64,000 bases of DNA from Escherichia coli (GTDB taxonomy: Bacteria > Pseudomonadota > Gammaproteobacteria > Enterobacterales > Enterobacteriaceae), in assembly GCF_011045215.1 (NCBI RefSeq), contig NZ_CP049201.1. One strand, written 5' to 3'. The notes beneath the pieces were generated by a model. It was given only the letters and a program-made list of their open reading frames with translations. It was not told the DNA's origin and made no database searches. Shown here piece after piece: positions 1,593-1,955 of the stretch (the first letter of the stretch is position 1; each line of letters starts with the position of its first letter). A program made the position numbers and the translations under genes.

Positions 1593-1878
1593 AATTCCCC
1601 CTTTGTTGTTTCTTAAAGAGTCATTGGGTGGATTATTGGGTTGGGTTAAGTCGGATTGTGTCAGGGTGTTTATGGAATGGCAAACACTGGTGGCGGTCGT
1701 TTTACAGAAGTGGGGTAATGAGAATAAAAAGTCTTTTAATTCATTGTGATGCAGTAGCGTAAAATTCTGTTTTTACGCCTTTTTTGCATGTTTTTAAGAG
1801 TGATCCGTCAATGTATAAAAGAACAGTAATATTATTAAAATCAAATAGTTATCAATTGTGTGTTTTTTAGTCCGTTAT

Positions 1879-1918
1879 TCCTTGTTGTAGCTTATTGTTC
1901 CTTGTTGTAGCTTATTGT
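1879..1918. repeat. Perfect 20-bp tandem direct repeat x2 (TCCTTGTTGTAGCTTATTGT) in the AT-rich int-alpA intergenic region
   Basis: Read directly from the sequence: 1879-1898 and 1899-1918 are identical. Confidence 0.85.
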
Positions 1919-1955
1919 TTCACGTTGTGTACGCCCTGAAAAACCACGAAAAAAA

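Follow-up and report, generated by a model that had tools for sequence, protein, structure and literature searches.

A 10-bp-phased array between int and alpA as candidate AlpA operators in an EcCICFT073-type phage-inducible chromosomal island

Introduction

Phage-inducible chromosomal islands (PICIs) of Gram-negative bacteria are widespread phage satellites whose cycle hinges on the regulator AlpA. Here we describe the spacer between the integrase gene int and alpA of one such island in Escherichia coli, located at positions 1593-1955 of a 64,000-nucleotide stretch of contig NZ_CP049201.1 (assembly GCF_011045215.1), which we call the window. An original prediction, made from the letters of this DNA, had singled out a perfect 20-bp tandem repeat in the spacer and had offered integrase arm-type sites, binding sites for AlpA and iterons as candidate explanations. 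We find that the repeat is part of a conserved array of 10-bp units with sister arrays in both attachment-site (att) arms, and we propose, with a probability of roughly 0.55, that these units are operators for AlpA, serving excision at the arms and self-activation in the spacer.

The nearest described designs are those of recombination directionality factors (RDFs), whose signature is a head-to-tail row of protomers on tandem repeats spaced by one turn of the helix, the single sites being weak and the binding cooperative and accompanied by DNA bending (PMC7498355). In phage 186, for instance, Apl is both a small excisionase and a transcription regulator, as are the Cox proteins of P2 and HP1, and it binds direct repeats one helical turn apart, weak and degenerate sites being filled cooperatively and with bending, in two kinds of place, with five sites at att and seven at the pR-pL regulatory region (PMC7498355). 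The arrangement that we propose for AlpA is the same in these respects. It differs in that Apl and Cox repress face-to-face promoters overlapped by their sites whereas AlpA activates its own gene, in that the AlpA array lies about 200 bp upstream of a predicted promoter with a site for integration host factor (IHF) between them, and in that arrays occur on both arms; Apl, in addition, is not an AlpA-family protein. A similar picture is found for lambda Xis, three winged-helix monomers of which lie head-to-tail on X1-X1.5-X2 as a micro-filament between an Int arm site and the core, with an IHF site nearby (PMC7498355), and the Xis sites likewise have a TGT-rich core. Lambda Xis differs in using one arm only and in having no regulatory array, and its sites were rejected as a model for the 10-bp units on account of their weak sequence similarity.

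P4 has the closest characterised homologue of AlpA, the excisionase Vis (45% identical), together with an integrase of the same type, 12-bp tandem arm repeats in the same relative places on both arms, and 10-bp-phased boxes (three of TTAAAG) that precede the promoter of its alpA homologue, vis. It differs in that vis lies far from int, in another gene order. Vis is reportedly both excisionase and regulator and is said to bind in the interval from int to the core; as for PLL, we take its phased boxes to be sites of the helper protein Cox, not of Vis. The P4 sequence (L077 in our numbering of loci; 3966-4010 and 9176-9205) also has three 10-bp-phased GGA(C/A) units (cGGACaacct cGGAAgacgc aGGACgaaaa) adjoining the int-proximal arm pair, and its TTAAAG boxes are annotated as "ori type 2 repeats". 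Both Vis and Int repress the P4 promoter Pint, according to a passage of PMC7286903 that cites Piazzolla 2006, whereas AlpA of EcCICFT073 leaves Pint unaffected (PMC6092414).

For the helper-embedded PICIs (HE-PICIs), a doubled 12-bp motif (tgTGTATTGCa x2) has been described at -81 and +132 of attP, the proposed binder being either the arm domains of Int or AlpA, and the motif was reported as unique to these islands (PMC10111431). It has the same design as the co-oriented 12-mer pairs that we find here at about +85 and -147 from the core, in a different sequence, and it corresponds to those pairs and not to the spacer array. HE-PICIs, whose Int is about 40% and AlpA 52-60% identical to those of our locus, also carry 10-bp-phased T-rich units beside the doubled motif, but their int-alpA gap is only about 60-70 bp and holds no third array. 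They have been proposed to be driven in cis by helper late transcription (PMC10111431).

Results

The 20-bp repeat belongs to an array of 10-bp units

Both int and alpA lie on the minus strand, separated by 363 bp with 35% GC against 52% for the window, in keeping with the AT-rich spacer of about 360 bp that had been predicted. The perfect head-to-tail repeat placed at 1879-1918 was also recovered: TCCTTGTTGTAGCTTATTGT occurs twice (1879-1898 and 1899-1918) with 0 mismatches in a pattern search, and Tandem Repeats Finder reports 1878-1919 with a period of 20, 2.1 copies and 100% matches. A second call of the same program spans 1874-1919 with a period of 10 and 4.6 copies. No further copy of TCCTTGTTGTAGCTTATTGT was found in the 64-kb window at up to 3 mismatches (0 in 100 shuffles), and a search at 5 mismatches gave only weak matches, in the int-upstream arm of related islands, which led us to read the unit as 10 bp.

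On the minus strand the 20-mer resolves into two 10-bp units, ACAATAAGCT and ACAACAAGGA, and these belong to a longer row that reads, after the int stop codon, ACAACGTGAA ACAATAAGCT ACAACAAGGA ACAATAAGCT ACAACAAGGA ATAACGGACT, the two copies of the 20-mer being units 2-3 and units 4-5.

1872..1931, minus strand: six-unit direct array in exact 10-bp phase, the proposed AlpA operator array
1879..1918, plus strand: perfect 2 x 20-bp tandem repeat TCCTTGTTGTAGCTTATTGT, equal to array units 2-5 in an ABAB pattern

The ACAA cores of the array lie at 1928-1925, 1918-1915, 1908-1905, 1898-1895 and 1888-1885, and the sixth core is degenerate (ATAA, 1878-1875). The real repeat unit is 10 bp, not 20 bp, with the consensus GGAACAA and the core ACAA, and the 20-bp repeat is a locally homogenised (ABAB) stretch of the six-unit array.

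Conservation of the array

Related loci were compared wherever an anchor could be placed after the int stop codon, which gave 75 loci made up of 7 from E. coli genomes, viral-contig loci found with AlpA, and O157-type islands. A phased array stands at the same place in 75/75 of them, with 5-6 units in all but L041, which has 7. Though there are 22 distinct array sequences among these loci, the period is exactly 10 bp throughout and the units are all co-oriented within each array; the array of E. coli CFT073, for instance, reads ACAACGTGAA ACAACGAGAC ACAACGACGA ACAACAAGGA ACAAAATGGA ACAACGGGTT. In the position matrix ACAA carries 1.8-2.0 bits per position and the G at -3 about 1 bit, with 0.2-0.7 bits at the other positions, and the ACAA core is invariant within this Int clade. 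A second conserved element lies beside the array:

1839..1851, plus strand: IHF consensus site AATCAAATAGTTA (WATCARNNNNTTR), about 20 bp to the alpA side of the array

This consensus is found at the same place in 73/75 loci, while variation is seen at its four free positions, in the spacer around it and in the stretch of about 20 bp between it and the array; the pattern has only 8 matches in the whole 64-kb window. Taken together, 73-75/75 loci retain the ACAA cores and the consensus positions of the IHF site, with the intervening spacer and the N positions diverging.

The exact ABAB allele is present in 11/5426 complete E. coli genomes. These 11 carriers align over 111/111 bases, one with a 1-bp indel, and as their copy number is constant a variable-number tandem repeat (VNTR) was rejected. 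Since the total length of the array is the same as in other lineages, the 20-bp duplicate represents the replacement of two units by copies of their neighbours rather than an addition, although the single extra 10-bp unit of L041 indicates that slippage occurs within the array. The perfect 20-bp identity is the outcome of two units being replaced or duplicated in one rare lineage; it does not imply a special function, and the repeat by itself is of no special importance. Because the exact 20-mer has no further copy and is limited to a rare sub-lineage, the repeat as it was first stated is not conserved; what is conserved, in all related islands examined, is the 10-bp array. As for the suggested co-variation with the integrase, the array variant is uncoupled from the type of Int N-terminus in L003 and L005, which have the same array type but different Int N-terminal domains and 12-mer pairs, while the ACAA core is constant in this clade.

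Sister arrays and 12-bp pairs in the attachment-site arms

Phased ACAA runs occur exactly three times per island, in the far arm, in the int-proximal arm and in the int-alpA spacer, and nowhere else in loci of 24-64 kb. By chance, Markov simulations of 64 kb (n=200) give an expected 0.17 runs of at least 3 units and 0 runs of at least 4 units. The int-proximal arm contains the following elements:

3238..3277, plus strand: int-proximal att-arm array of four 10-bp-phased units (ACAA 3241, ACAG 3251, ACAA 3261, ACAA 3271)
3311..3320, plus strand: isolated additional unit TGAACAACGT (ACAA 3314-3317), conserved in L001-L007 and standing to the core side of an AT-rich IHF-like stretch
3208..3231, minus strand: 12-bp tandem pair GGTGTAGTTAAT x2, 19-46 bp upstream of the int ATG, proposed Int arm-type sites
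3360..3369, minus strand: att identity block AATAGCGGAT inside comM (yifB), the right island boundary, present at both junctions of the comM-site relative L003

The units at 3238-3277 run opposite to those of the spacer array and have the 12-mer pair on one side and the core on the other. In complete relatives the far end of the island has an array too, with three units in the far arm of L001-L004. All three arrays share one position matrix, including the G at -3, as well as a two-unit block, TTGTT(C/T)CACGTTGT. The further copies that had been expected at the other att arm are found, then, for the 10-bp sub-units, as phased arrays in both arms, and not for the exact 20-mer, which occurs nowhere else.

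Both arm arrays lie 9 bp from a 12-bp tandem pair. Copies of the GGTGTAGTTAAT pair are located in the relatives at 2399-2422 (L001), 1468-1491 (L002), 4575-4598 (L003) and 2631-2654 (L004), and the pair is co-oriented at both ends of related islands (far arm in L001-L004), with its centre about 147 bp from the core on the int side and about 85 bp on the far side. The annotated "attP arm sequence repeats" of P4 are likewise 12-bp tandem pairs, situated 16-39 bp upstream of int and across the core, and EcCIMP1 has a pair, GATGGGGGTACT TATGGGGGTATT, before int, repeated in the same orientation at the other end of the island. The sequence of the pair is wholly different between Int clades (P4, EcCIMP1, HE-PICI and the present one), and as this clade specificity is combined with four half-sites that fit an Int tetramer, we take the pairs to be, probably, the Int arm-type sites. 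The pairs would account for the four arm domains of the tetramer, leaving the arrays for a second protein. The type of int-proximal 12-mer is perfectly linked to the Int N-terminus, though, since the far-arm pair does not vary along with it, the link may reflect nothing more than physical linkage.

The re-use of an arm motif behind int recurs as a design in EcCIMP1 (L089), an unrelated PICI, with another motif: the int-proximal arm has two copies of GTYTACTAAAGT, and a third follows the int stop codon at a distance of 24 bp, compared to 0.08 matches expected by chance.

18950-18961, 20273-20284 and 20336-20347 in L089 (EcCIMP1): copies of GTYTACTAAAGT

The ICEKp1 paper contains no arm-site data.

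AlpA as the proposed binder

The protein that we consider the best candidate to occupy the units is encoded directly downstream of the spacer:

1404..1592, minus strand: alpA, 62-aa winged-helix regulator and excisionase homologue (Pfam Phage_AlpA PF05930, E 3e-18)
1655..1683, minus strand: candidate alpA promoter TTGCCA-17-CACAAT (TG-extended), conserved, prediction only

The AlphaFold model of AlpA (pLDDT 85) has its best PDB matches among excisionases, namely 8c3t (TM-score 0.81-0.88), RdfS and Pukovnik Xis, with BldC also among them. BldC forms filaments on direct repeats. The arrays have the features by which RDF sites are recognised, being direct repeats and not palindromes, having an exact 10-bp period, consisting of several weak sites that share a short core, being accompanied by like sites in an att arm beside an Int arm-type site, and lying in an element that encodes a small winged-helix RDF. 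In vitro, both attL and attR are bound by an AlpA/Vis-family RDF that works together with a P4-like integrase (PMC8844411).

Functional evidence is available for EcCICFT073, which serves as the model PICI of Gram-negative bacteria and whose int-alpA spacer (CFT073 1379160-1379524) is 84% identical to ours, its Int and AlpA being 85.6% and 98.4% identical. AlpA of this island activates its own promoter, and its overproduction alone leads to Int-dependent excision and replication in a non-lysogen host (PMC6092414). When the primers of the PalpA-lacZ plasmid pJP2038 are mapped on the CFT073 locus, the reporter fragment is seen to begin 33 bp before the int 3' end, to cross the entire spacer and to extend 58 bp into alpA, and it contains the whole array and no 12-mer motif. 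The response of pJP2038 to AlpA was measured in DH5alpha carrying only the reporter and an alpA plasmid (PMC6092414), so that the Int of the island was absent during activation. These observations are compatible with the array being the AlpA-responsive element of the fragment, and among the three explanations first offered for the repeat AlpA binding is the best supported, with the amendment that the functional unit would be 10 bp and not 20 bp.

Several points weigh against this assignment. A Pint reporter was not influenced by AlpA (PMC6092414), even though int has the proposed arm array immediately upstream; the primers of that reporter did not map on L001. Only one conserved sigma-70-like promoter was found, itself a prediction, and the spacer array is some 200-250 bp upstream of it, which is far for a simple activator. 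An RDF array placed distal to the arm-site pair, as on the far arm, has no classical role. Lastly, Int and AlpA are tightly linked in all close relatives (AlpA 90-100% and Int 82-97% identical), and in more distant islands both motifs and both proteins change, so that covariation could not separate the two proteins. For instance, the 69 viral-contig loci found with AlpA all have the same Int clade, and in L078, L083, L086, EcCIMP1 and the HE-PICIs either both proteins and both motifs are changed or the architecture is another. The AlpA homologue search gave 19 proteins, and a scan of the genome contigs for Int gave no matches.

Some of these more distant islands have features of their own. In L078/L079 and L083/L084 (AlpA about 67-73% identical) an extra open reading frame (ORF) of 257-302 aa lies between int and alpA and overlaps the int stop codon, and L083 has, at 2384-2478 before alpA, the perfect palindrome AGTGATATCACT twice, 22 bp apart, which suggests a different, repressor-like control.

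If the units are AlpA operators, each unit would take one AlpA monomer, and the monomers would polymerise cooperatively on a single face of the helix and bend the DNA. At the att arms, the four-unit and three-unit arrays beside the 12-bp Int arm-site pairs would let AlpA shape the excisive intasome. In the spacer, AlpA on the six units together with the adjacent IHF site could remodel the AT-rich region upstream of the alpA promoter some 200 bp downstream, and the outcome would be positive autoregulation of alpA, committing the island to its cycle after a trigger from the helper phage. The sites, the cooperativity and the role of IHF are what we infer here, whereas autoactivation and the need for AlpA in excision were demonstrated by others (PMC6092414).

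Alternative explanations

It is also possible, though unlikely, that the phased ACAA units are themselves the integrase arm-type sites, the spacer array then being an extra Int cluster that regulates alpA or int or sequesters Int. The 10-bp units do lie in both att arms, which matches at the 10-bp level the copies that the original prediction expected of arm-type sites, and Int has an arm-binding domain (PF13356). In L086, moreover, arm units of the TTGTTCG type persist together with an Int N-terminus that is about 80% similar, while AlpA is only about 55-60% identical. Lambda, too, has three adjacent arm-type sites in its P' arm. However, arm-type sites lie within about 200 bp of the crossover core, as the units at 3238-3277 and in the far arm do, whereas 1430-1500 bp (about 1.4-1.5 kb) separate the spacer array from the core at 3360-3369. 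The 12-bp pairs are closer counterparts of the P4 arm repeats and of the HE-PICI doubled motif and already give four half-sites, which makes them the better candidates; L003 and L005 show one array type with two types of Int N-terminus; and as the spacer fragment responds to AlpA without Int, a third site, for AlpA, would be needed. Integrase binding is accordingly the weaker of the two protein assignments first proposed.

A further reading, and an improbable one, is that the array is the landing site of a Xis/Cox-like or other protein of the helper phage that switches on alpA, with the AlpA sites lying elsewhere or being shared. P4 offers a parallel, as three TTAAAG boxes in 10-bp phase precede vis by about 150 bp. 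At these boxes P2 Cox is said to activate PLL. Lambda and phi80 both induce the alpA reporter that contains the array (PMC6092414), and in EcCIMP1 the helper continues to induce the alpA reporter when alpA is deleted from the strain, and helper Xis and AlpA-family proteins can substitute for one another (PMC11773190). The best-conserved unit, CACGTTGTGT, also resembles lambda X2 (ATGTTGTGT). Nevertheless, the att arms of the island itself contain the same units, and in a non-lysogen AlpA alone suffices to drive excision (PMC6092414). The unit matrix fits the lambda Xis region only modestly, with the best site in the top 0.17% of the lambda genome and X1 scoring poorly; lambda has no phased array, and lambda and phi80 would need a common specificity.

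A combined version can be drawn by analogy, in which the array would be the entry point of helper induction, a helper Xis/Cox-like or other protein, with a structure like that of AlpA, nucleating there and firing the alpA promoter with IHF, before AlpA takes over the same array for positive feedback and the sister arm arrays for excision. This follows the logic of P2 Cox acting on P4 PLL, with a shared operator, and we regard both the entry point and the sharing as doubtful.

Neutral slippage or duplication (a mini-VNTR), or a target defined by curvature only or by nucleoid proteins (H-NS/Fis), is similarly hard to favour. The confinement of the ABAB allele to so few E. coli genomes, the unit gained in L041 and the low GC content of the spacer would agree with such an origin. 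Against it, the copy number does not vary among the 11 carriers, and number, phase, position and ACAA core are kept over the 22 array sequences while the flanks diverge. The same consensus, including the G at -3, is found in the att arms, which argues for a sequence-specific protein rather than for curvature alone.

The iterons of a replication origin, the last of the candidates originally offered, are highly improbable, as their likeness to tandem direct repeats of about 20 bp in AT-rich DNA is superficial, the true period being 10 bp (iteron units are typically 17-22 bp), the primase or helicase genes lying more than 2.7 kb away in the complete relatives L002-L004, the PICI ori being placed downstream of pri (PMC10111431), and the att-arm copies being left unexplained by an origin.

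Other elements of the spacer

On the minus strand alpA starts from a Shine-Dalgarno sequence and a GTG at 1592. Most variants have 196-200 bp between the last array unit and the TTGCCA of the candidate alpA promoter, and two have 208 bp. Two further promoters were considered and rejected. A sigma-54 promoter, suggested by the IHF site and the distant array, would require GG-N10-GC, which was not seen by eye at the candidate promoter, and an array-abutting promoter, TTGATA-16-AATATT (1855-1828), is not conserved in other spacer variants and has its TTGAT overlapping the conserved IHF core. Two hairpins were also found:

1937..1971, minus strand: terminator-like hairpin and U-run at the int stop codon, directly before the array (weak, z -1.3; T-runs invariant in the alignment)
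1757..1786, plus strand: conserved hairpin GCGTAAAA/TTTTACGC (1757-1778) followed by a T-run (z -3.3)

The second of these reads as terminator-like for plus-strand transcription, antisense to the alpA leader, and in the alignment it has a compensatory change from C-G to T-A in L007/L085. An Rfam scan of 1-3600 gave no match, so the plus-strand hairpin does not belong to a known RNA family, and no conserved antisense ORF was found. The hairpin may end a countertranscript that keeps alpA silent.

The host island

The array lies in an EcCICFT073-type PICI inserted in comM. Upstream of int there is a 5' fragment of comM (yifB), which places the insertion in that gene, followed by ilvLXG; the comM N-terminal fragment matches ChlI. 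The gene is broken near codon 57 by the island (boundary 3360-3369, comM part 3370-3561).

1956..3185, minus strand: int, P4-type tyrosine integrase (ATG at 3185, the start annotated in relatives; longest ORF from GTG at 3206)

The Pfam domains of Int are Arm-DNA-bind_3 (PF13356) and Phage_integrase, and alpA is followed by an AntA-family gene (1351->551). EcCICFT073-type PICIs are recognised by having int followed by alpA in the same orientation at one end, by subsequent Bro/AntA, Icd-like and primase modules, by a length of about 10-15 kb and by a specific insertion site. The window holds only the int end of the island (1-3369), and the full gene order is provided by complete relatives, at comM (L003) or in the abgR-smrA spacer (L002 and L004), in which int, alpA, antA/Bro, an icd-like gene, primase or helicase, perC and late genes follow one another as expected of an EcCICFT073-type PICI.

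Relatives with Int 92-97% identical lie in the abgR-smrA spacer, with the identity block AATATCGTGA, and others adjoin roxA, allE, tqsA or cspD. The spread over comM, abgR-smrA and other sites indicates that one Int clade uses several similar cores. Outside the island the window has further tandem repeats at 3902-3938 (period 15, 2.5 copies, near the ilv leader region) and 11338-11387 (period 22, 2.2 copies).

Significance

We found no mapped operator sites for a PICI AlpA in the literature, and the arrays described here are of a known kind, newly located in these islands. They are offered as a candidate set, consisting of the three phased arrays, the IHF site and the candidate promoter, with the 12-bp pair set apart as candidate Int arm sites. 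If the proposal is true, PICI AlpA would join Apl, Cox and Vis as a dual-function excisionase and regulator, and the sites would supply the reporter mutations with which the helper-encoded inducer may be found.

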